Below, in pieces: positions 1 through 51,500 of a DNA stretch of 51,500 bases. The position numbers were made by a program, and so were the translations under genes. Source of the DNA: a virus. The stretch lies in the IMG/VR virus record IMGVR_UViG_3300021446_000092, positions 1 through 51,500 of that record; one strand, given 5' to 3'. Each line of letters starts with the position of its first letter. Position 1 is the stretch's first letter. Under the pieces are notes generated by a model. The model was not told the origin of the DNA. It saw only the letters and a list, made by a program, of their open reading frames with translations, and ran no database searches.

Positions 1-72
1 CTCAAGTTCACCTTCTACACTCAACTCTTGCACCCGGTATGTAATAAAGGTTTGCTTCAAGCTAATTCTCCA
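1..72 (-). promoter_or_regulatory. Conserved promoter + 5' leader cassette, copy cut by window edge
   Basis: ctcaagttcaccttctacac...gtaataaaggtttgcttcaagctaatt matches copies at 3605, 4644, 31281 and inverted copies at 16662, 17148. nt 1-27 are identical to 51474-51500, so it probably drives CDS 51147..51473 across a circular junction. Confidence 0.7.
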
Positions 73-146
73 CTTGCCGGAGAGTGCAAAGCCTCACGCC
101 TACGGACCGTAGTCTGAAGCGGCGCAATGGAATGCGCAGGACAACG

Positions 147-346
147 GGTGAACGCCGCCGCACCGCGAAAACCGCGTTCAGGGACAGCCGCCGCAGGCGC
201 TCTGCGTCGAAGGCAAGACGGCGCGCGGGAGGTGAAGCCCGCGCGCGCTTCAGAAAGGCGTCCGGTTGGTGAACTTGAGATGAACGCCCTCCGCCCGGGC
301 CGCCCTGGAGGTGAAACAGGGCGACCCGGTGAACGCGGGGTTCACC
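147..346 (+). repeat. Non-coding cluster of five GGTGAA(C/G/A) motifs, including an orphan leader fragment and a hairpin
   Basis: GGTGAA at 147, 231, 268, 310, 328. 268-282 = GGTGAACTTGAGATG, identical to the last 15 nt (SD to ATG) of the cassette. 328-346 = GGTGAAC-gcggg-GTTCACC, a perfect 7-bp hairpin. Confidence 0.6.
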
Positions 347-414
347 TCTCGGGAGTCTGTAAGCGGCGGCCGCCTATGAGTCCTCCGGCTCCCCGGAGTC
401 CTCCGCCGCCTTGA
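280..414 (+). CDS. Doubtful 44-aa Arg/Pro/Gly-rich ORF behind the orphan leader fragment
   Basis: The ATG at 280 directly follows GGTGAACTTGAG. Composition is basic and unlike the acidic proteome, and the ORF overlaps the 3' end of 374..952 in antisense. Confidence 0.15.
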   Translation: MNALRPGRPGGETGRPGERGVHLSGVCKRRPPMSPPAPRSPPPP

Positions 415-952
415 TAGCCGCCTCCAGTTCCGTGACCGTTATCTCCGGATCTATGTCCCGTACGCCAAGCGTCTCTAAGTCGAGTGTCTCAAAGTCGGGC
501 CGGCTCCCGCTCGCTGGTGTCACGTAACCGGATGAGGCGCTCTGCGGGATTATACTCTCGACGCTATCCGGGATTGCACTCCCGGGGCTGTCCAGTAGTG
601 ACGGCGGATCCGGCGGGGAAGACGCCCACTCTGTCTCCGGGTCCCCGGTGGCGGTCAAGTGAGTCTGTTCCGGTGCGTCGAAGTCCGGGAAGTTAACGTC
701 GGAGTCCGGGAGGTTATGCCGGGCCGCCACGGCGCGGGCGCAGTCCGGGCAGGTGTCCGGATCTTCGATGAAGTCAACCAGGGAGTCCCAGGAGTCCTCG
801 ACATGGGCAACGAAGCCGTCCCGCTCGTGGCCGCACGCCGCAGGGTTTTGGGAGCCGGTGGAGGCTCCACACGGCCATTCCTTTGTGGTCCCGGACCGCA
901 TCGAGTCCCAAACGTGGTACCGTTCGTCGCCAAAACAGGTGACGTAGTTCAT
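374..952 (-). CDS. Acidic hypothetical protein, member of a CPxC-motif paralogue family
   Basis: 192-aa ORF with halophile-type acidic composition. ATGA overlap with the upstream gene at 949-952. Motif SWDSLVDFIEDPDTCPDCARAVAARHNLP is shared with four other ORFs. Confidence 0.8.
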   Translation of the reverse strand: MNYVTCFGDERYHVWDSMRSGTTKEWPCGASTGSQNPAACGHERDGFVAHVEDSWDSLVDFIEDPDTCPDCARAVAARHNLPDSDVNFPDFDAPEQTHLTATGDPETEWASSPPDPPSLLDSPGSAIPDSVESIIPQSASSGYVTPASGSRPDFETLDLETLGVRDIDPEITVTELEAAIKAAEDSGEPEDS

Positions 953-1365
953 CCGAATAGCCCCCCAAACACGGCTTCTCCGTCTTCACTGTCCTCGCCG
1001 TCTCCGCCGTCCTCGCTGTCTTCGCTTTCCTCGACGTACTCAGCCGCCGGGGGCCACCTGTCAGCGAGGCCCATCTTACAGGAGGGACAGAGATCCGGGT
1101 CGTTCACAAGCTCCTGAAGGTCGGAGAATGCCGCCATCTCAGTGACGTGGAGTAGGTCCCTCGGAAAGTCCTTATGCCCTCCCCCTCCTTGCGAGTTTGC
1201 TTCCTGTACCGAGATCCCGCAGATAGCCGAGGGAGACGTTCTCGACCCGCTCACGGTATATGACGCGGTGTTCGGAAAATCGGGGTGCGACTCCACCAAG
1301 CCGGTGTTGAGCGGCTCGATGTAGATGTGGAACGGCTCGGTGTAGTGGTTGATGAACAGGGCCAT
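949..1365 (-). CDS. Acidic hypothetical protein, CPxC-motif paralogue
   Basis: 138-aa ORF coupled to its neighbours. Motif FSDLQELVNDPDLCPSCKMGLADRWPP. Confidence 0.75.
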   Translation of the reverse strand: MALFINHYTEPFHIYIEPLNTGLVESHPDFPNTASYTVSGSRTSPSAICGISVQEANSQGGGGHKDFPRDLLHVTEMAAFSDLQELVNDPDLCPSCKMGLADRWPPAAEYVEESEDSEDGGDGEDSEDGEAVFGGLFG

Positions 1366-1643
1366 CAGTCGCCACCTCCGGGGGCCGCGGCGCGGACACG
1401 CCTCCCCGCGTGCCGTTCCATCGCTTCTACTTCGGGGAAGCCGAAGTGGTCCGCCAGCCTTTCCTTACAGTCGCACGAAGTATGGATCCGCCCGTTGTGG
1501 ACGAGTTGCCAGATGGACGCCCCATACTCATCCGTCACTTCATACACAGCGTCGCGGTGCCCGCACAGGGTTTCTTCCCCTTCCTCCAGTCCAAGGCACA
1601 TGTCGGAGTGGTTCGCGTTCTGTACGTCGGTGTAGAACGCCAT
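1365..1643 (-). CDS. Hypothetical Cys-rich protein (92 aa), divergent CPxC-family member
   Basis: Internal ATG (MAFYTDVQN) of track ORF 1365..1787. TGATG overlap with the upstream stop at 1643. C-terminal TSCDCKERLADHFGFPE resembles the family motif. Confidence 0.7.
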   Translation of the reverse strand: MAFYTDVQNANHSDMCLGLEEGEETLCGHRDAVYEVTDEYGASIWQLVHNGRIHTSCDCKERLADHFGFPEVEAMERHAGRRVRAAAPGGGD

Positions 1644-1930
1644 CAGTCGTCCACCTCCAGCGCCTCTACGGTCCACTCCACCGCCGGTTCGCCGTACCGC
1701 TTGAGCCGGACGCGGTCGGGGCACAGATCCGGGTTCTGGGCGTCCTCGGGTGCCACGTCGAAGTCCGCGGGCGTGACCGTCGGCCATACGTTCCGTCCGG
1801 GGGAGGCGCTTGGAACGTCCAGGGTACTGGCGGGCGTCCGGATCACGAACCCGTCTCCGACGCCGGCAACGGAGTTGGGGAGGTGTAGCCCGCGCTCGGT
1901 GAGCGCGAGGGTCCCGCGCGGCTCCGTCAT
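1643..1930 (-). CDS. Hypothetical protein (95 aa), degenerate CPxC-family member
   Basis: Internal ATG (MTEPRGT) of track ORF 1643..2308. ATGA overlap at 1927-1930. Motif EDAQNPDLCPDRV. Confidence 0.65.
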   Translation of the reverse strand: MTEPRGTLALTERGLHLPNSVAGVGDGFVIRTPASTLDVPSASPGRNVWPTVTPADFDVAPEDAQNPDLCPDRVRLKRYGEPAVEWTVEALEVDD

Positions 1931-2214
1931 CTCTCCACCTCCGGAAGCTCGTGGAACCGCTCGCGGAGCGTCACGCTGTTCGTGTCGAACCGCTCCGCCA
2001 CCATCGACTGGGTGGGCCGGCCAGCGCCGGGCGCGGCGCGTGGGCGCGTCTCCAGATACGCGGCGTACACGGCCGCCGCGGCGACCCCCTTCGGGGCCTT
2101 TCCGTAGTGCCACGACTCGTCCGCCTCCGCGAGCGCGACAGCGCGCTCTACCACGTCGTCCGGGATCCCGTCCGCCTTGGCCTCGATGATACCGACGGGC
2201 GTCTCGGGGTACAT
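1927..2214 (-). CDS. Solo TFB/TFIIB-type cyclin-repeat protein (95 aa)
   Basis: GIPDDVVERAVALAE...GKAPKGVAAAAVYAAYL...PTQSMVAERFDTNSVTLRERFHEL aligns by eye with the second cyclin repeat of archaeal TFB (GKSPxGxxAAAxYxA ... TQxEVAxxxxVTEVTxRNRYKEL). No Zn-ribbon or B-reader/linker is present. Confidence 0.75.
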   Translation of the reverse strand: MYPETPVGIIEAKADGIPDDVVERAVALAEADESWHYGKAPKGVAAAAVYAAYLETRPRAAPGAGRPTQSMVAERFDTNSVTLRERFHELPEVER

Positions 2215-2351
2215 CAGCACGCACCCCCGGCGAGCTTGTACGCCGCGCCGAGCGCCTGCGCGTCCAGCAGGAACGCCCCAAAGTAGAGTAGCTCGGGCTG
2301 GAAGCCATCCGACCGCGCGGATAGGAGCGCGACCGTGAGCGTGAATATCAT
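2214..2351 (-). CDS. Small hydrophobic protein (45 aa)
   Basis: MIFTLTVALLSARSDGFQPELLYFGAFLLDAQALGAAYKLAGGAC. ATGA overlap with the vWA stop and TGATG overlap with the next start. Below the ORF-track size cutoff. Confidence 0.45.
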   Translation of the reverse strand: MIFTLTVALLSARSDGFQPELLYFGAFLLDAQALGAAYKLAGGAC

Positions 2352-3604
2352 CGGCCGCCCCCGCCGACGTTCATCTGGGCCTCGTAGATCTGGATGAGGC
2401 TCTGGGCGATGTCGTTCTCGTCGGTCATAACGTAGCCGCCCTCGCCGAACATCTTCCGCATCAGATCCTCGTCTGCGCCGGGCTGTATCCCCATCCCGAT
2501 GACGACGTAGCCGTCCTGGCGGTACTTCCGGACTTCCTCTTGCGCCTCGGTTGTCGCGCCGACCGCGTTGTAAGTCCCGTCAGCCATCATCTGCGGCTGT
2601 CCGTCCGTGATAACGACCATCAGGCGCTCGGAGGCGGAAACCTCGTCGCACAGGCCCTTCGCGTGCCGCATCCCAGGCGTGATGGGATCCTGGTAGTTCG
2701 GCCACACGGCGTCCAGATGCTCCCACTCAAAGTCCTCGTCCGGGAGCGTCACCGGGATGATGCGCTGGTTCTCCTTACCCTTCTTTTCCGTGCTGGTCCA
2801 GGCGTTGGCGGTGAAGTCGTCTCCGATTTCCCGGCACGCGATGGCAAGCGCGCCGAGGGCGCTCTTGGCTTCCTTCACGACGCCCTTCATGGAGCCGCTC
2901 ATGTCCATGCTGACGGTGACGGCGCGGTCGCCCGGCTCCGCCTTCTGCTTCCGCTCGTAGAGGCGGTCCTGAGCGGACGTGTCGCCGGCCACAAGGTCCA
3001 CCACAGCGTCCTCGTTGAGGCGCTCGCCGTCCTCGTCCGGGACCCAGCGGTCGTCCGTCTTGAAGCGGCTGAACGCCTCCACGACTTCCTCCGCTTGCCC
3101 CGTCTCGTTAAGGCGGTCGCGGACGGTCTGGTGGCCGACTTCCTCGTAGCCGTCGTCGTCCGGGTTGACGCGCCCGGAGTCGAGGCGCTTCTGCCGGGTG
3201 CGGCGGTCCTGCTCCAGGTCCGTGTCGGCCTGGTCCTTCTCCCGCTGGACCTGCTCGAACTGTTCCTCGAAGCCGTCAAGCTCCGTCACGTCCACTTCCT
3301 GGTCCTCATCCAGTTCGTACTCCAGCCCGGTCCGGCCGTAGTCCTCATCGGCCCGGTCGTAGTCGTCCGGGACGTGTTCGTCCTCACCGTGTTCGTCCAC
3401 CTTGGAAAGCTCCGGGACCGGATCCGCGTCATCGTCCTCCACGATGGCGTCCGGCGTCTCGTCGTCCGCGCCGGACCCGCGCCCGCCCTCGGGAGCCGAA
3501 TCGCGCTTCTCCACGTCCGCGCCGGCCGCGGTGAGCTTCTCGATTTCCGCGGAGGTCAGATCCTCCGCGACCACTTCGCCCGTCTCGGTGTCTATAGCTT
3601 TCAT
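2348..3604 (-). CDS. von Willebrand factor A (vWA) domain protein with acidic N-terminal region
   Basis: MIDAS motif DMSGSM, later ITDGQP. 418 aa. The ATG directly follows a promoter/leader cassette. Confidence 0.9.
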   Translation of the reverse strand: MKAIDTETGEVVAEDLTSAEIEKLTAAGADVEKRDSAPEGGRGSGADDETPDAIVEDDDADPVPELSKVDEHGEDEHVPDDYDRADEDYGRTGLEYELDEDQEVDVTELDGFEEQFEQVQREKDQADTDLEQDRRTRQKRLDSGRVNPDDDGYEEVGHQTVRDRLNETGQAEEVVEAFSRFKTDDRWVPDEDGERLNEDAVVDLVAGDTSAQDRLYERKQKAEPGDRAVTVSMDMSGSMKGVVKEAKSALGALAIACREIGDDFTANAWTSTEKKGKENQRIIPVTLPDEDFEWEHLDAVWPNYQDPITPGMRHAKGLCDEVSASERLMVVITDGQPQMMADGTYNAVGATTEAQEEVRKYRQDGYVVIGMGIQPGADEDLMRKMFGEGGYVMTDENDIAQSLIQIYEAQMNVGGGGR

Positions 3605-3675
3605 CTCAAGTTCACCTTCTACACTCTACACTTGCATACGGAGGGTAATAAAGGTTTGCTTGGGGCAAATTCTCC
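3605..3675 (-). promoter_or_regulatory. Promoter + leader cassette (drives vWA operon)
   Basis: In gene direction: GAATTTGCCCCAAGCAAACCTTTATTACCCTCCGTATGCAAGTGTAGAGTGTAGAAGGTGAACTTGAG-ATG. TATA-like TTTATTAC lies about 48 nt upstream of the ATG, SD-like GGTGA about 12 nt upstream. Confidence 0.75.
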
Positions 3676-3707
3676 AGAAATAGAACGTTTTGAACCGTGA
3701 AGCGCCG

Positions 3708-4643
3708 CTACTCTACGATGCGGATTTCTGCGGCGTCCCGCTCCCCGAGTAGCTCGGCCACCATCCGGCTGTCCCGCGTCTCGCTCCCGCCGTCCTCGCC
3801 GTCCGCGCTGGAGCCGCCAGCCGCGGCGTCCGTGTCCTCGGCTTCCTCCGGGTCGAAGTCCGAATCGTCCGGGGCCTCGTCCGGGTCGAAGTGCCCGCGC
3901 TCCAGATCCTCCATAATCTCCTCGATGAGGTCACGGAGGAAGTCCGGCAGGTCCGGCGTCTCCGGGATGACCTCACGGAGACGGTCCACGACTTCGTGGG
4001 CCATCTCCTCGCGGCGGTCCGGGTCCTGGGTCTGCTTGACTTGCTCCGCCAGCGGGGCAATGTCCATCAGCGCCTCGCGGACTTCCGGGTCGGCGTCGTT
4101 GATGCCCTTGACTCTGCCCGCGAACGCGAGTTGAGTGAATCCCTCGACGGCCTGCTTCCGCGGCGGGATCTCACTCATCGGCGGGCGCATCTCATCGTCC
4201 TCCATGAGGCTCTGAATCGCCCAGTTGTGGACCTTCTTGAGTCCGCGGTACTTCCGGTGCCGGTTGTAGTCGATGTAGTTGTCCTCCAGAATGTTCATCG
4301 CCATTCCGGCGAGCTTCGCGTAGCCGTCGTCGTGTTGCTCCATGAACTCCCGCTTGCCCTCGATTTTGGAGTCGTTGTGGTGCTGAACCTCGTGGGAAAG
4401 CGTGTCCACGAGGAGCCGGAGCGCGTGCGCGCCGGTCGCGTCGTGGTACTTCCACGGCGCGTTCACGTCGAGGTAGACCGCGCGGGTCCCGTCCGGATCC
4501 GTATTGGCGTGGGCCGTCTCATCCGTCCAGCGGACTTCGATGGGGCCGTCGTCGCCGTCGTAGTAGTTCTGCGCGAGGTTCGTCAGGAGCCGCTTCAGGG
4601 CCTTGCTCTGTTCCAGCGCGTCGTCGGGTTTGGTATCGCTCAT
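3708..4643 (-). CDS. HExxH zinc metallopeptidase-like protein
   Basis: 311 aa with motif SHEVQHH and an acidic C-terminus. The ATG directly follows a cassette. Its neighbour is a vWA protein, resembling split DUF2201-type peptidase+vWA proteins. Confidence 0.85.
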   Translation of the reverse strand: MSDTKPDDALEQSKALKRLLTNLAQNYYDGDDGPIEVRWTDETAHANTDPDGTRAVYLDVNAPWKYHDATGAHALRLLVDTLSHEVQHHNDSKIEGKREFMEQHDDGYAKLAGMAMNILEDNYIDYNRHRKYRGLKKVHNWAIQSLMEDDEMRPPMSEIPPRKQAVEGFTQLAFAGRVKGINDADPEVREALMDIAPLAEQVKQTQDPDRREEMAHEVVDRLREVIPETPDLPDFLRDLIEEIMEDLERGHFDPDEAPDDSDFDPEEAEDTDAAAGGSSADGEDGGSETRDSRMVAELLGERDAAEIRIVE

Positions 4644-4715
4644 CTCAAGTTCACCTTCTACACTCTACACTTGCATACGGAGGGTAATAAAGATTTGTTT
4701 TGAGCAAATTAATCC
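4644..4715 (-). promoter_or_regulatory. Promoter + leader cassette (drives metallopeptidase gene)
   Basis: Near-identical to the 3605-3675 copy over about 55 nt. Confidence 0.75.
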
Positions 4716-4830
4716 CAAGCGGTGTCTATAGAGGCTTTGCGGGCCGTTTGCGGCGGATGAGCTGATTATCTTTTCTGATAACGCCGCGGGAGTGGGACAG
4801 GATTAGCCCACCCAGAGTGGCCCGATGTCC

Positions 4831-4859
4831 GCCTATCTTCCCCAAGGGGGAAGATAGGC
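4831..4859. repeat. Perfect 13-bp inverted repeat (stem-loop) in a long non-coding region
   Basis: gcctatcttcccc-aag-ggggaagataggc. Confidence 0.9.
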
Positions 4860-5041
4860 GAGTGGCGTGAGCGGGGGTTTTCCCGGCGGTTCTTTCCGGC
4901 ACCGGAGCAGGTCCGCATCTCGACTGCCCGGCCGTGCAGGTCGGCTGAACCTTCTACTGACCAGAAACTTTAAGGCGGAAACGGGATTATGGCAAATTAC
5001 CGCCGCGGAGTGAACGACACCCACTCCCGGTGGGCCGAACC

Positions 5042-6199
5042 ATGACGACACCGTGGAAAGACATCCAGTTCGCTGGGGTAGGCGGAGCCTCCGGCGGAGT
5101 CGCGTTCAGCGACTACCTCCGGACGCTCTACGGCGTTGCTCCGGCGGACACGACGACGATGAAGGACGCCGTGAGCGTCCTTCAAGACGAGTATAGCATC
5201 GAGGCGCGAGAGGTGGCCTACGACGACCCGACCGCCGCAGAGGAATGGTCGGGGACGGGCCGCCACATCGCCCTCGTCAACCCCGCAACAGGCCGCTTGT
5301 GGCACATCCCGACCCGGGAGTACACGCCGGTCACTCCCGAGGAGAAGTACGGCCCGCTCCTCGCCCGGCTCCGTGCGCGGGACTTTCACGAGTCCGTGTC
5401 GGGTGAGATCCGCCTGTTCCGGGACGGCGGGGAAGTCCACGCGGACTTCCTTCTGGACGACCTTCGGACCGGCGCGGACGACGAGATAGTGATGGGCGTC
5501 CAAACCGGCCACAACTACTTCGGCGGGAAGGCGCTCTACGCCGGTATCATCGCCTACGACACGGCGAACAACCGGATGATGCGCGGCCTGTCGGAGAAGC
5601 GGACCCGCCGCCACACCGGATCTGCCGGGTCGGACGTGGCGGACTGGTGGGACCAGATACTCAACCAAGCCGAGGACGCCTGCGACACGCTCGCGTCGGT
5701 GATTCTGGACGCCCAGGACTACCGCGTGGGCTTCTCTGAAGTCCCGCTGTCGCCCGCGGAGTACCTCACCTACGCCTTCGACGGCACGGAGTACCTCGCG
5801 GAGAACAGCGGCGAAGGCGAGGGACAGACCGGCGGTGCGGTGGCGTACCTTCCGGACGTTCCGAACCCCACGTCCGCCACCTACTCCGGCTGGGAGCTGT
5901 ACGCCGCGATGGCGTCCGCGCTCACCCACGACTTCCACGGGAAGGACGACAGTACGGCCGTCAGGCGGTACGTCCGCCGGGCAAACCGGCAACTGTTCTC
6001 CCCGCCGCGGATGGAGGACGACGTGCTTTCCGACGCCGCGGAGGACCTGGAGGACCAGGAGGATCTCGAAGGCGAGTCCATTCTGGAGTCAATCCGGGAG
6101 CGGCAGGCGTCCATCGGGGTCGCCGTGAAGCGCGCGCGGTCTGACAAGGACCGGCTCCGGACGCTGGTGGATGAAGCGGAGTCCGCGGAGGCGGCATGA
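5042..6199 (+). CDS. Hypothetical protein (385 aa), possibly a DUF932-like phage/plasmid protein
   Basis: Long acidic ORF starting at ATG 5042 (MTTPWKD); a GTG at 5030 is also possible. The family assignment is only an impression. Confidence 0.85.
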   Translation: MTTPWKDIQFAGVGGASGGVAFSDYLRTLYGVAPADTTTMKDAVSVLQDEYSIEAREVAYDDPTAAEEWSGTGRHIALVNPATGRLWHIPTREYTPVTPEEKYGPLLARLRARDFHESVSGEIRLFRDGGEVHADFLLDDLRTGADDEIVMGVQTGHNYFGGKALYAGIIAYDTANNRMMRGLSEKRTRRHTGSAGSDVADWWDQILNQAEDACDTLASVILDAQDYRVGFSEVPLSPAEYLTYAFDGTEYLAENSGEGEGQTGGAVAYLPDVPNPTSATYSGWELYAAMASALTHDFHGKDDSTAVRRYVRRANRQLFSPPRMEDDVLSDAAEDLEDQEDLEGESILESIRERQASIGVAVKRARSDKDRLRTLVDEAESAEAA

Positions 6200-7520: not shown

Positions 7521-7896
7521 AACCCAACCGACGGCGGACGAACAGACCGACGACAACTTCACCCCCGGCGATTTCGCGGAGGACAGCGAGGAGTCCGGGA
7601 CGATGGTCGTGATAGCGGACGCGGGCCGGGAAGCGCAAGACCACCTCGTGGTCGCCGCGGATGAGACGGTGGCTGAACTGAACCCGGACTACCCGGCGGA
7701 CGACAACGTGCTGTTCTGCGCCTACCGGAACGCGCTGGACTCCACGTTCGGTGAGTCGTGGCGGGAGTGGACGGCCGCGTTCCTCGCGTTCCAAGTCGGA
7801 GACCAAGGCGTACCCGTGTACTCGTTCCCTGAGAGCCGGCTGGCGGCGAAGGCGGACGAGTACACCGCGGACGACGGAGGTGAGGGAGATGCGTGA
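7510..7896 (+). CDS. Acidic hypothetical protein (128 aa)
   Basis: Acidic ORF that overlaps its neighbours by a few nt. Confidence 0.75.
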   Translation: MTTETQPTADEQTDDNFTPGDFAEDSEESGTMVVIADAGREAQDHLVVAADETVAELNPDYPADDNVLFCAYRNALDSTFGESWREWTAAFLAFQVGDQGVPVYSFPESRLAAKADEYTADDGGEGDA

Positions 7897-9418: not shown

Positions 9419-9606
9419 CTGTGGCGGCGAAAATCGTGTTCATCGCCACCGCGCTCATCATCGCCGTCGGCGGCTCTACGTGGGCGCTCGCCTGGGCCTA
9501 CCGGAAGCACGTCGAGGCGAGCGCGGAGACGAGGAAAGCCCGCTACGAGCGCGACGAAGCGATGGTCGGAGAAGCCGAACGGGAGGTGAAGAAACGGGAG
9601 CGGTAG
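9415..9606 (+). CDS. Small single-pass membrane protein (63 aa)
   Basis: GTG start overlapping the previous stop (GTGA). Hydrophobic N-terminus and charged C-terminus. Confidence 0.6.
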   Translation: MTVAAKIVFIATALIIAVGGSTWALAWAYRKHVEASAETRKARYERDEAMVGEAEREVKKRER

Positions 9607-10598: not shown

Positions 10599-11361
10599 CG
10601 CCGCCGCCGTTCTGGAAGCCGTCGCGTGGGTCGCCACCGGCTACGTCCTGTCTTCCACGCTGGCGCGCATGGCGTTCTCCCGCCCGGCGCTCCCGCCGTA
10701 CAAGCCGCCGGAGATGGTCGCCGAGCTATGGCGGGTCGGCGCGGCGCTCCATATCTACCCGGATCCGGCGCTCCCGTGCGGGTGCCCGGCGTCGTGGCAG
10801 GACGTGTCAATCGTGTCCGACCGGGACCCAGACGGAACGGTGTACAGCACGATAGGCGCGTTCTCCAACGCGGACCGCGAATACAATCAGGTCCGGACCG
10901 TGGCGGAGGAAGGCGGCGGACTGAAAATCAGGGAAGTGGGAGAACAGACACACAGTTGCCGGATCTGCGGCGGGCGGTGGGTTGAACCGGCGGAGCGCCC
11001 CGACTCCCTCCGCCCCGGACGCCCCGTAGAGCCGGTTGCGGTCCCGAAGCCTACCCCAAGCGAGAAAATGAGAGCCTTACCGGCGGACTGGACGCGGCTG
11101 GACCGTGTACTGAATGAGGAGGCAGGCCAAGTGTCGGAGTACGTCCGCGACGACACCTGGGAGGCGTTCATCGAGGTGTTCGACGCCTCGGACCCGAACA
11201 ACGAGTACCAGCCGGAGCTTGGCCCGGTCTGTGCGGTTCTTCTCACCGGAGATCCGGATAGCGGTGTCTGGGAACGGGACACGGAGTACGGGGACAGCCG
11301 TACTGAGGCGGCAAAACGACTAATGCGGAGGTACAACGATGGAGCGTATGGCACGCAATGA
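10591..11361 (+). CDS. Hypothetical protein (256 aa)
   Basis: Long ORF with a hydrophobic N-terminus, an internal CRICGG and an acidic C-terminal half. Confidence 0.8.
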   Translation: MSDAAAVLEAVAWVATGYVLSSTLARMAFSRPALPPYKPPEMVAELWRVGAALHIYPDPALPCGCPASWQDVSIVSDRDPDGTVYSTIGAFSNADREYNQVRTVAEEGGGLKIREVGEQTHSCRICGGRWVEPAERPDSLRPGRPVEPVAVPKPTPSEKMRALPADWTRLDRVLNEEAGQVSEYVRDDTWEAFIEVFDASDPNNEYQPELGPVCAVLLTGDPDSGVWERDTEYGDSRTEAAKRLMRRYNDGAYGTQ

Positions 11362-11494
11362 CAGACACAAGTGCCCGAAGGACGGGTGCGGCGGAACGCT
11401 CCAGCACACGGGCGAGAAGCGAGAGCTATACGGCGGCCACCACGTCTCCGTCATGGAGTGCGGCCTGTGTGGAACGGAGGTGGAACGCGGATGA
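11348..11494 (+). CDS. Zinc-ribbon protein (48 aa)
   Basis: MARNDRHKCPKDGCGG...MECGLCGTEVERG. Lies in the third frame, missed by the track. TGATG junction to the next ORF. Confidence 0.5.
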   Translation: MARNDRHKCPKDGCGGTLQHTGEKRELYGGHHVSVMECGLCGTEVERG

Positions 11495-11673
11495 GCAGAT
11501 GGGTGCTTTCCCGCCGGGCGAACGCGATGGCGACCGGGTGGCTCATCTACTCCGCCCTCGCCTACGGGTGGGCGCGCGACCACGTCCCGCTCCCGCTCCT
11601 GCTTACGGCGGGCGTCGTCCTGTTCACCGCGGAGACGCACCGCTACATGACGGGAGGGTACGACGGTGAGTAG
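11491..11673 (+). CDS. Small membrane protein (60 aa)
   Basis: MSRWVLSRRANAMATGWLIYSALAYGW...LLLTAGVVLF; two hydrophobic segments. Confidence 0.55.
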   Translation: MSRWVLSRRANAMATGWLIYSALAYGWARDHVPLPLLLTAGVVLFTAETHRYMTGGYDGE

Positions 11674-17147: not shown

Positions 17148-17217
17148 TATTTGCTTGAAGCAAACTTTTATTACCCTATACCTGCAAGTATAGAGTGTAA
17201 TGGAGGTGAAAAACAGT
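17148..17217 (+). promoter_or_regulatory. Divergent copy of the promoter + leader cassette
   Basis: tatttgcttgaagcaaacttttattaccctatacctgcaagtatagagtgtaatggaggtgaaaaacagt-ATG. The TATA/BRE-like part is conserved and the leader 3' part diverges (GGAGGTGA). Confidence 0.7.
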
Positions 17218-17508
17218 ATGGAACACAAAGTCCACCGCGACGTGTCGGACGAGGAAAAGCGTCTCTGGTCGGAGTTTCAGGACGCGCTCGAAGCCTCAGA
17301 CTTCGAGAAGGTTTCCGTGACCGAGGTCGCCGTCCAGCGGGTCGGGATCCACGAGACGCGGTCGCGGCAAATCGTCTCCACGTGGGAGAACGAGGGGCTG
17401 GTCATTTCCGGAGGGGCCGGGTCGTATGACCACGCCGCGCTAACCGAGTACGGCCGGCAGGTGGACAGCATCGTTTCGACCAACACGGGCGGCGAGTCCT
17501 GGCGTTAG
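17218..17508 (+). CDS. Winged-helix-like DNA-binding protein (96 aa)
   Basis: MEHKVHRD...VSVTEVAVQRVGIHETRSRQIVSTWENEGLVIS resembles an HTH/wHTH regulator. Confidence 0.8.
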   Translation: MEHKVHRDVSDEEKRLWSEFQDALEASDFEKVSVTEVAVQRVGIHETRSRQIVSTWENEGLVISGGAGSYDHAALTEYGRQVDSIVSTNTGGESWR

Positions 17509-51146: not shown

Positions 51147-51473
51147 CTACTCCGTCAAGACGAGCGGGTCGCTCGCGCTCCAGGGGCCGCCCGTATCGGA
51201 AGCCCCGTAGTGGTCGCGGGCGAGGTTGTGCATCCACTCGGAGAGGATGCCGCGGCTGATCCCGAGGTCGTCGGCCCAATCGGACAGTTCGTAGCCGGCG
51301 GAGTCGCGGAGGACCACGAGGTTGTCCGTCTCGGCCAGCTTCTCGATGTGTTCCTCGGCCACGTAGTCCTCGACTGAGAGCGAGGCGGAGCTGAGGTCGA
51401 TACCGTTTTCGGTGAGGCGCGCGCCGTCGTCGGTGCTGTTCTCGGTTGCGTCGTAGGCGTCAGTAGCGTTCAT
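51147..51473 (-). CDS. Acidic hypothetical protein (108 aa), cassette-driven
   Basis: ATG 51473 (MNATDAYDATE) directly follows ctcaagttcacc.... C-terminal LGISRGILSEWMHNLAR is HTH-like. Confidence 0.8.
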   Translation of the reverse strand: MNATDAYDATENSTDDGARLTENGIDLSSASLSVEDYVAEEHIEKLAETDNLVVLRDSAGYELSDWADDLGISRGILSEWMHNLARDHYGASDTGGPWSASDPLVLTE

Positions 51474-51500
51474 CTCAAGTTCACCTTCTACACTCAACTC
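51474..51500 (-). promoter_or_regulatory. Leader part of the promoter cassette, cut by the window end
   Basis: Identical to nt 1-27. Confidence 0.7.

Follow-up and report, generated by a model that had tools for sequence, protein, structure and literature searches.

Why does a non-coding spacer in the genome of a haloarchaeal virus carry copies of the virus's own translation starts, inverted with respect to the genes on either side? The spacer lies in IMG/VR record IMGVR_UViG_3300021446_000092, a complete record of 51,500 nucleotides (nt) from a halite metagenome, which we analyzed over its whole length (the window). Gene order is collinear with that of Haloarcula hispanica tailed virus 2 (HHTV-2, Saparoviridae), whose proteins are ~30–84% identical, and judged by its sequence the virus is an HHTV-2-like haloarchaeal siphovirus. 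The spacer, ~300 nt long, separates the last gene of a cassette-driven operon with a vWA gene (the vWA operon) from a promoter cassette at 72–1, which, as read from the sequence, drives gene 51147–51473 across the circular junction of the record (nt 1–27 are repeated as 51474–51500). A sequence-only reading had described a cluster of GGTGAA motifs here, together with one copy of the cassette start region, and had proposed an anti-leader RNA or a decoy. Based on a comparison with related viruses and on predicted folds, we suggest that the spacer encodes an anti-leader RNA, forming the end of the vWA-operon transcript, that would mask the Shine-Dalgarno (SD) sequence and AUG by pairing. We assign this reading a probability of about one half.

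The GGTGAA cluster and the leader copies

Six promoter cassettes with the core GCAAACCTTTATTAC are present in the window. Five of them have an identical leader, GTGTAGAAGGTGAACTTGAGATG; the sixth, at 17160 (gene ATG 17218), has a different one, AATGGAGGTGAAAAACAGTATG. GGTGAA occurs on the plus strand of the spacer region at 147, 231, 268, 310 and 328, as first reported, and once on the minus strand (341–346). Genome-wide there are 29 copies on the plus strand and 25 on the minus strand. The earlier estimate that five copies are more than expected holds: among 300 simulated second-order Markov genomes, the maximum on a single strand per 200 nt was one in 137 runs, two in 157 and three in 6, and at least four copies were reached in 0/300, compared with the five observed. 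GGTGAA is also the sole rare hexamer with five copies per 200 nt; the other hexamers with 5–6 copies are abundant words of coding repeats, with 65–110 copies. The cluster is not due to chance. The motifs are real, but they do not all belong to the spacer proper. Positions 73–160, including the motif at 147, are assigned to the promoter cassette, because the 196-nt module of which they are part is found twice in a nearly identical contig (L108, described below).

The motif at 268 begins the leader copy. The 15-mer GGTGAACTTGAGATG occurs as an orphan at 268–282 on the plus strand and at the cassette starts 3602, 4641, 31278 and 51471 (minus strand) and 16721 (plus strand), with 0.02 expected. 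The copy is longer than originally described: over 20 nt (268–287) it is the same as gene 51147–51473 from the SD through the spacer and ATG to the five bases that follow, reaching into the second codon. A second orphan, absent from the earlier list, lies at 306–316 on the plus strand, where the 11 nt TGGAGGTGAAA are identical to the sixth cassette leader; a match of this length was reached by 5/2000 shuffles. The 8-nt SD GGAGGTGA is complete at 228 and 307 on the plus strand. In its full form this SD also precedes two regulator genes, one PadR-like (7876–7891, likely true start ATG 7889) and one wHTH-like (17202–17220, ATG 17218); the 8-mer has 0 copies on the minus strand and is used by no minus-strand gene.

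As the sequence-only reading stated, the region lacks a credible open reading frame (ORF). Plus-strand ORFs 127–414, 84–272 and 280–414 have a G+C content at third codon positions (GC3) of 0.56–0.70 and an isoelectric point (pI) of ~12, outside the range of the genuine genes of the window (GC3 0.74–0.93, mostly pI 4–5). The flanking genes are all on the minus strand. By sequence, no A/T-rich promoter motif is found ahead of the unique part of the spacer (161–373) on either strand; transcription of this part would therefore be a continuation of operon transcription. Read in this direction, the unique part contains four UUCACC motifs and no run of at least four T before 171–168. Oligo-T acts as an archaeal transcription terminator, and the UUUU at this site is a candidate for a weak termination signal.

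The minus strand of the spacer is predicted to fold better than shuffled sequences (z = -3.3/-4.2), whereas the plus strand is not (z = -1.7/-1.4). The predicted hairpins, H0 to H3, are listed in Table 1. H0, a perfect hairpin with seven base pairs (bp), GGTGAAC-CCCGC-GTTCACC, is found where the earlier reading had placed it; alternatively, this segment pairs with the H3 region in the minimum-free-energy fold of the 213-nt RNA. The loop of H2 carries the reverse complement of the translation-initiation region (TIR); the complete anti-TIR, from 287 to 268 on the minus strand, reads GCGUUCAUCUCAAGUUCACC. The probability of being unpaired is 0.87–0.95 for the H2 loop and 1.00 for the H1 loop in the predicted fold. 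Where the minus-strand H2 stem has three G.U pairs, the plus strand has three C.A mismatches. Both the H1 and the H3 loop match 9–11 nt of the SD region of the sixth leader, and the H3 loop with its first stem bases, UCACCUCC, has the same 8 bases as the haloarchaeal 16S anti-SD. A 12-nt match of H3 at position 9580 does not coincide with a start codon.

Co-variation and predicted pairing in four lineages

We compared four diverged lineages: the window with L108, L112 with L113, HHTV-2, and G001. The spacer has the same position in all of them, between the vWA operon and the cassette promoter that follows. On the operon-sense strand, each spacer contains a segment complementary to that virus's own, different leader. 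In the window and L108 (leader GGTGAACTTGAGATG) the anti-leader is complementary at 20/20 positions to the TIR of the next gene, GGTGAACTTGAGATGAACGC. In L112 and L113, where vWA is 68% identical, the leader is GGTGAGACAGAGATG and the anti-leader CATCTCTGTCTCACC (15/15); the complementarity extends to 24/26 against the TIR and first codons of the next gene, and a 10-bp stem encloses the segment. Four positions between the SD and AUG have changed on both arms between the window and L112. In HHTV-2 the leader TGTAGCAGGTGAAC is accompanied by the anti-leader GTTCACCTGCTACA, which is complementary at 14/14 positions to the vWA leader and, around a 2-nt bulge, at 10+5 positions to the leader of gene 10; in G001 the leader is AGCAGGTGACCCAC and the anti-leader GTGGTTCACCTGCT, 13/14 to the AAA leader. 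The 14-nt island GTGGTTCACCTGCT is common to HHTV-2 and G001, while the surrounding spacer aligns poorly and with many indels. This complementarity, and its co-variation across lineages, is directly observed. In the order given above, the duplex energy between spacer and TIR was matched or beaten by 0, 0, 4 and 0 of 500 dinucleotide shuffles, and the sense strand contains 5, 3, 2 and 2 copies of TCACC vs 1, 0, 1 and 0 of GGTGA. The sequence-only reading had named conservation of the motif cluster as a check: an anti-leader occupies the same syntenic spot in four lineages. TCACC, the 5-nt anti-SD core, is the one motif that all of them share. For the extra TCACC motifs of L112, HHTV-2 and G001, no convincing TIR target was found elsewhere in those genomes. 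In the terminated form of the RNA, the anti-leader is predicted to be unpaired with a probability of 0.87, 0.57, 0.58 and 0.51 in the four lineages.

We folded read-through RNAs that begin at the upstream stop codon and end at +40 within the next gene. Pairing of the anti-arm with the next TIR is predicted in these folds with a probability of 1.00 in the window, 1.00 in L108, 0.90 in L112, 0.99 in HHTV-2 and 0.92 in G001. The distance from arm to TIR is 270–350 nt, and in every lineage the TFB-recognition element and TATA box (BRE/TATA) motif of the next gene lies between the arms, the start sites being inferred; in the window, this is the cassette at 1–72. No run of four or more T precedes the anti-leader, and in L112 there is none at all before the next gene. 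In all four lineages, then, a segment upstream on the same transcript is complementary to the SD or start codon and is predicted to pair with it, the arrangement expected of TIR sequestration.

Searches for further relatives were negative. Contigs L109–L111, L114 and L115 stop short of the spacer. An exact 15-mer scan of viral contigs gave 85 single chance matches and no relative; a 23-mer leader scan of viral contigs and a 21-mer orphan scan of metagenome contigs gave no match; a vWA profile found no relatives among JGI metagenome contigs, nor did an AAA profile among genome contigs.

In HHTV-2 (L091, NC_021340) the anti-leader falls inside the annotated 'gene 9' (5648–5941). This ORF has a GC3 of 0.64 and a pI of 9.8, compared with 0.9 and 4.2–4.5 for its neighbours, and aligns to G001 only via indels that are not multiples of three. 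By these sequence features it is probably a mis-annotated non-coding spacer. In L112, an HNH_3 endonuclease gene (11236–11637) is inserted directly 3' of the vWA gene, and the gene after the spacer, from its N-terminal 48 residues, is not identifiable as an AAA ATPase.

The gene that follows the spacer differs between otherwise nearly identical genomes. L108, an ENA contig of 52,983 nt, is 99.97% identical to the window over the operon and spacer, and differs in having a wHTH-MoxR (AAA_5) ATPase gene of 453 residues between two 196-nt direct repeats; the window is without this gene. The shared TIR and the first 28 coding nt of 51147..51473 head the ATPase gene in L108. The window follows L108 copy A to module nt 188 and copy B thereafter. 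Because the switch falls within an 83-nt stretch identical in both copies, and the window contig ends (the 27-nt 'terminal repeat') in the same stretch, the absence of the ATPase gene may reflect either a true deletion or assembly collapse; the window may thus be a deletion variant or a collapsed assembly lacking ~1.5 kb. HHTV-2 and G001 have the ATPase gene at the equivalent place, and this comparison places the spacer, in its ancestral state, ahead of the cassette of the ATPase gene. Copies A and B (L108:5320–5407 vs window 160–73) differ at 14 positions in the upstream 88 nt and at 2 further positions in the first 17 nt of the cassette. Copy B is without the GGTGAA of 147 (it reads GTTCTCC), and the small hairpin GCGCA-UUCCAU-UGCGC is pairable in copy B as GAGCG-UUCCAU-UGUUC.

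Table 1. Positions of the spacer, its predicted hairpins and neighbouring features (window coordinates unless a contig is named)
Feature	Position	Strand	Description
Anti-leader module, unique part of the spacer	161..373	-	Taken as the 3' end region of the operon RNA; non-coding composition (GC3, pI)
H0	328..346	-	Perfect hairpin/palindrome GGUGAAC-CCCGC-GUUCACC
H1	297..327	-	11-bp stem (one G.U), 9-nt loop UUUCACCUC
H2	253..292	-	11-bp stem, 8 Watson-Crick and 3 G.U pairs; 18-nt loop with anti-TIR
H3	221..246	-	9-bp G+C stem, loop CUUCACCU; formed in 301-nt fold
First oligo-U after the operon (UUUU)	168..171	-	3' of all three anti-leader loops
Upstream part of 196-nt promoter module	73..160	-	Fifth motif (147), two small hairpins
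Copies of 196-nt module	L108:3793-3988 and L108:5320-5515		Equivalent to window 160 through 1 to 51438
Promoter and leader cassette	1..72	-	BRE/TATA GCAAACCTTTATTAC at 55-41; leader GUGUAGAAGGUGAACUUGAG; between the anti-arm and its matching TIR
Next gene	51147..51473	-	108 residues; SD-AUG-AAC-GC is the 20-nt target; no Pfam family
Last gene of vWA operon	374..952	-	192 residues, acidic; stop codon adjoins spacer
T-arm-like elements	L097:1930-1950; L101:293-312; L104 ~455-475		Upstream of homologues of the 108-residue protein

For the 192-residue protein at the end of the operon, no Pfam family was found and no homologue beyond the identical protein on L108. Homologues of the 108-residue protein occur in other viruses (L097–L107); their upstream regions are without a cassette and thus provide no comparison for the spacer. 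Upstream of these homologues in other halite viruses we observe a conserved tRNA T-arm-like element, GGGGTTCGA(C/G)TCCCC.

Cis masking and the alternatives

We suggest the following mechanism. Minus-strand transcription that continues past the vWA operon would yield the spacer RNA, which would fold such that its loops expose the reverse complements of viral leaders; H2 would cover 15–20 nt, from the SD to the second codon, of five identical leaders. The core step would take place in cis: on a read-through RNA, the anti-arm would pair with the downstream SD and AUG and hide them. The masked gene would be the wHTH-MoxR AAA ATPase in L108, HHTV-2 and G001, and the 108-residue gene in the window. 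Because the putative promoter lies between the arms, RNA made from the gene's own promoter would be without the anti-arm and escape masking, and the gene would be translated solely from this RNA. These loops might in addition pair in trans with other cassette mRNAs, at their identical leaders.

Several considerations weigh against cis masking. Read-through, 3' ends and transcription start sites are all inferred from the sequence, as are transcription of the spacer and the effect on translation; a search with window 1–5000 found no RNA run, only one halite-metagenome DNA run. The anti-leader duplex energies are similar across all cassette TIRs within a genome, and only the window clearly favours the next gene (-42.9 vs -36 to -40 kcal/mol). 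All cassettes share one promoter type, which leaves the gain from silencing read-through translation unclear. In Haloferax volcanii, SD motifs in 5' untranslated regions did not raise translation (PMC3986360); GGUGA may thus not be a classic SD, in which case masking of the AUG would still matter. An identical inverted repeat in the DNA would give the same co-variation. Outside the window lineage the overall spacer fold is not significant (z = -0.7 to -1.2), and there are only four lineages, in two of which the paired assemblies are not independent.

The sequence-only reading had envisaged an RNA acting in trans on every cassette mRNA. A minus-strand tail antisense to the leader SD and AUG is supported by comparative and thermodynamic evidence, but action in trans is not favoured over action in cis. 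Binding of the RNA to the cassette leaders is predicted, at -36 to -43 kcal/mol for the five identical TIRs of the window. Since the duplex energies are similar for all TIRs, complementarity alone cannot separate the two modes; cis masking of the next gene is at least as strongly indicated, considering the geometry of anti-arm, promoter and TIR and the pairing probability of 0.90–1.00.

A riboregulator acting purely in trans is the alternative that survives best, and we regard it as a tentative possibility. The operon tail, ended at the oligo-U or processed, would accumulate as an RNA derived from the 3' untranslated region. With its three loops it would bind the SD and AUG of every leadered viral mRNA, the 5' leader of the operon itself among them, and serve as a feedback or timing switch; pairing in cis would be incidental. 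Trans action is plausible because all five identical TIRs would be bound nearly equally and because the H1 loop has an 11-nt match to the distinct leader of gene 17218, 17 kb away and on the other strand. It would also suit the exposure of the loops in the predicted fold, the several anti-SD cores in each lineage's spacer, the layout of three hairpins that aligns, below threshold, with the small-RNA family ar14 (E = 0.0005), and a haloarchaeal RNase that is reported to cut viral antisense duplexes (Stolt and Zillig 1993, as cited in PMC8707807 and PMC6210493). Such activity could render a duplex formed in cis or in trans destructive. On the other hand, the spacer is without a promoter motif of its own, its sole end signal is a run of four T that is absent in L112, and extra loops with TIR-like targets were found in the window lineage only. 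Trans action alone needs no fixed position just upstream of the target promoter, and in two lineages the complementarity enters the codons of the next gene.

In a more elaborate version, which we likewise consider possible rather than probable, the 3' tail of the operon would be a multi-headed trans riboregulator, each loop being the anti-leader of one leader class. H2 would serve the five identical leaders, and H1 and H3 the GGAGGUGA-type leaders, namely that of the wHTH gene at 17218 and perhaps that of the PadR gene at 7889. Build-up of the vWA operon RNA would stop all cassette mRNAs from being translated, or trigger cleavage by the haloarchaeal duplex-specific RNase.

It is unlikely that the spacer is a functionless relic, consisting of cassette scraps left by recombination between repeats and kept alike by gene conversion. 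The cassettes do recombine or confuse assembly, as the junction of copies A and B in the window illustrates, and gene replacement between lineages is concentrated at this locus. However, the segment is kept with matching changes in four lineages in which the remaining spacer is no longer alignable, its orientation and its distance from the TIR are constant, and it sits in a loop closed by a strand-specific stem. Segments of 14–26 nt without flanking homology are, in addition, poor substrates for gene conversion.

Somewhat less likely still is an array of DNA operators. A viral regulator, for instance the PadR-like protein, the solo TFB domain or the wHTH of the AAA ATPase, would recognize the GGTGAAC/GTTCACC sites and also the GGTGAAC of every cassette leader. 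The perfect 7-5-7 palindrome at 328–346, the five direct copies and one inverted copy, the presence of wHTH and PadR proteins in the virus, and the location of the spacer ahead of the wHTH-AAA gene in L108, HHTV-2 and G001 are all consistent with this. The matches, however, run for 20–26 nt through the start codon into codons, far beyond the length of an operator, and vary with the leader among lineages; only the 5-nt TCACC is common to all lineages, and the palindrome is present in the window only.

An invertible promoter is improbable. Here the arms would be DNA inverted repeats flanking a promoter, and a ~255-bp segment would flip, turning the next gene off and letting antisense transcription from the orphan SD-ATG enter the vWA operon. 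In the four lineages a promoter is flanked by inverted repeats of 20, 26 and ~14–15 bp; in the window, the arms are at 268–287 and 51466–51485 (= -8..12), with the TATA at 41–55 between them. A flipped orphan copy would regain a TATA box, and identity of the DNA arms would also account for the co-variation. Against this, no tyrosine or serine recombinase (PF00589, PF00239) is found in the three complete genomes of the window, G001 and HHTV-2, in searches whose controls were positive, although a host enzyme is possible. A single orientation is present in all seven assemblies (window, L108, L112, L113, HHTV-2, G001, L115), which are contigs only. The ORF to be switched on is not conserved, with 44 codons in the window but 11 in L112 and no counterpart in HHTV-2, and inversion leaves the extra TCACC motifs and the strand-specific G.U pairs unexplained. 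Logan contigs X1–X3 over 1–1500 contain no joints or variants; they break at the cassettes and are uninformative on inversion or on the AAA segment.

A plus-strand product, either a basic peptide of 44 residues preceded by a relic leader or a decoy RNA, as the sequence-only reading had also considered, the latter titrating ribosomes through its SD motifs, can be dismissed as very improbable: the perfect SD-spacer-ATG at 268–282 and the two full-length SDs at 228 and 307 would fit it, but the peptide ORF (280–414, plus strand) is rejected as a small protein gene by its non-coding composition (GC3 0.58, pI ~12) and lack of conservation (11 codons in L112, absent in HHTV-2), no BRE/TATA for plus-strand transcription lies within 73–267, and the plus-strand RNA folds no differently from shuffles (z = -1.4 to -1.7 vs -3.3 to -4.2), with three C.A mismatches in the H2 stem.

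Relation to known systems

The closest parallel to cis masking is found in phage T4 (PMC3014915). There, RNA structures in early read-through transcripts of genes e, soc, 49 and I-TevI conceal the ribosome-binding site, and transcripts from a nested late promoter, which lies within or beside the 5' arm, are translated. In both cases the SD and/or the start codon has a pairing partner (here a predicted one) in an arm further upstream on the same strand, the promoter of the gene lies 3' of the arm (here as a promoter motif only), and the structure is kept across related phages by matching sequences. With transcripts of the gene starting at its putative promoter downstream of the arm, only the read-through RNA would be masked, as in the T4 type. 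The spacer differs in belonging to an archaeal virus with BRE/TATA promoters and in being known from sequence and predicted folds. Its arms are 270–350 nt apart rather than forming a local hairpin, and the target leader is a repeat common to 5–6 genes. Unlike the case of the T4 late promoter, the upstream operon here uses the same promoter type, and no early/late logic is evident.

The spacer also resembles Rfam family ar14 (RF02344), with three hairpins and a pyrimidine-rich anti-SD motif in loops 1 and 3. When 361 nt were analyzed with cmscan, UUUCACCUCC and CUUCACCU, in the H1 and H3 loops, aligned to two ar14 CCUCCUCCC loops. Membership of ar14 was rejected at 30.4 bits vs a gathering threshold of 58.8 (E = 0.0005), and the likeness is one of layout only. 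Unlike ar14, the spacer is set in an archaeal virus, has no promoter of its own, and carries a gene-specific anti-TIR of 15–20 nt in its middle loop. Bacterial small RNAs of the RsaE and RNAIII types likewise have anti-SD motifs in hairpin loops.

The antisense RNA of the Halobacterium phage phiH is reportedly a true counter-transcript, made from the strand opposite its target. The anti-leader is instead a separate copy, 270–350 nt upstream of its nearest target, on the same strand, or kilobases from other targets, and a cis-antisense counter-transcript of the phiH type was rejected for this reason. The two are alike in that RNA of a haloarchaeal virus pairs with the 5' part of viral mRNA, as described for phiH by Stolt and Zillig (1993; cited in PMC6210493 and PMC8707807); according to PMC8707807, the phiH duplex is a substrate of host RNase and the mRNA becomes untranslatable. 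Halovirus HF2, like the window virus, is a tailed haloarchaeal virus with a repeated intergenic cassette that bears a promoter (PMC8707807). The HF2 paper makes no mention of Shine-Dalgarno sequences or leaders, and we did not find an inverted orphan copy described. A viral device against the SDs of its own class of mRNA is also seen in the T4 endoribonuclease RegB (PMC3014915), a protein nuclease that cuts GGAG, whereas the agent proposed here is complementary RNA.

In the literature searched, we found neither these cassettes nor an anti-leader described for HHTV-2-like viruses. To our knowledge, gene regulation of tailed haloarchaeal viruses is almost unstudied beyond phiH. The prediction is directly testable, because HHTV-2 and its host Haloarcula hispanica are in culture. 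It implies that 'gene 9' of HHTV-2 would be a mis-annotated non-coding regulatory spacer. If the multi-headed trans riboregulator were true, an archaeal virus would possess an early shut-off switch based on RNA. An anti-leader would also indicate that the leader, and probably its SD, matters in a setting where leaderless mRNAs dominate and the role of the SD has been questioned (PMC3986360). More generally, a conserved, co-varying anti-SD/anti-AUG element would be a clear case of translational control at the RNA level in an archaeal virus.

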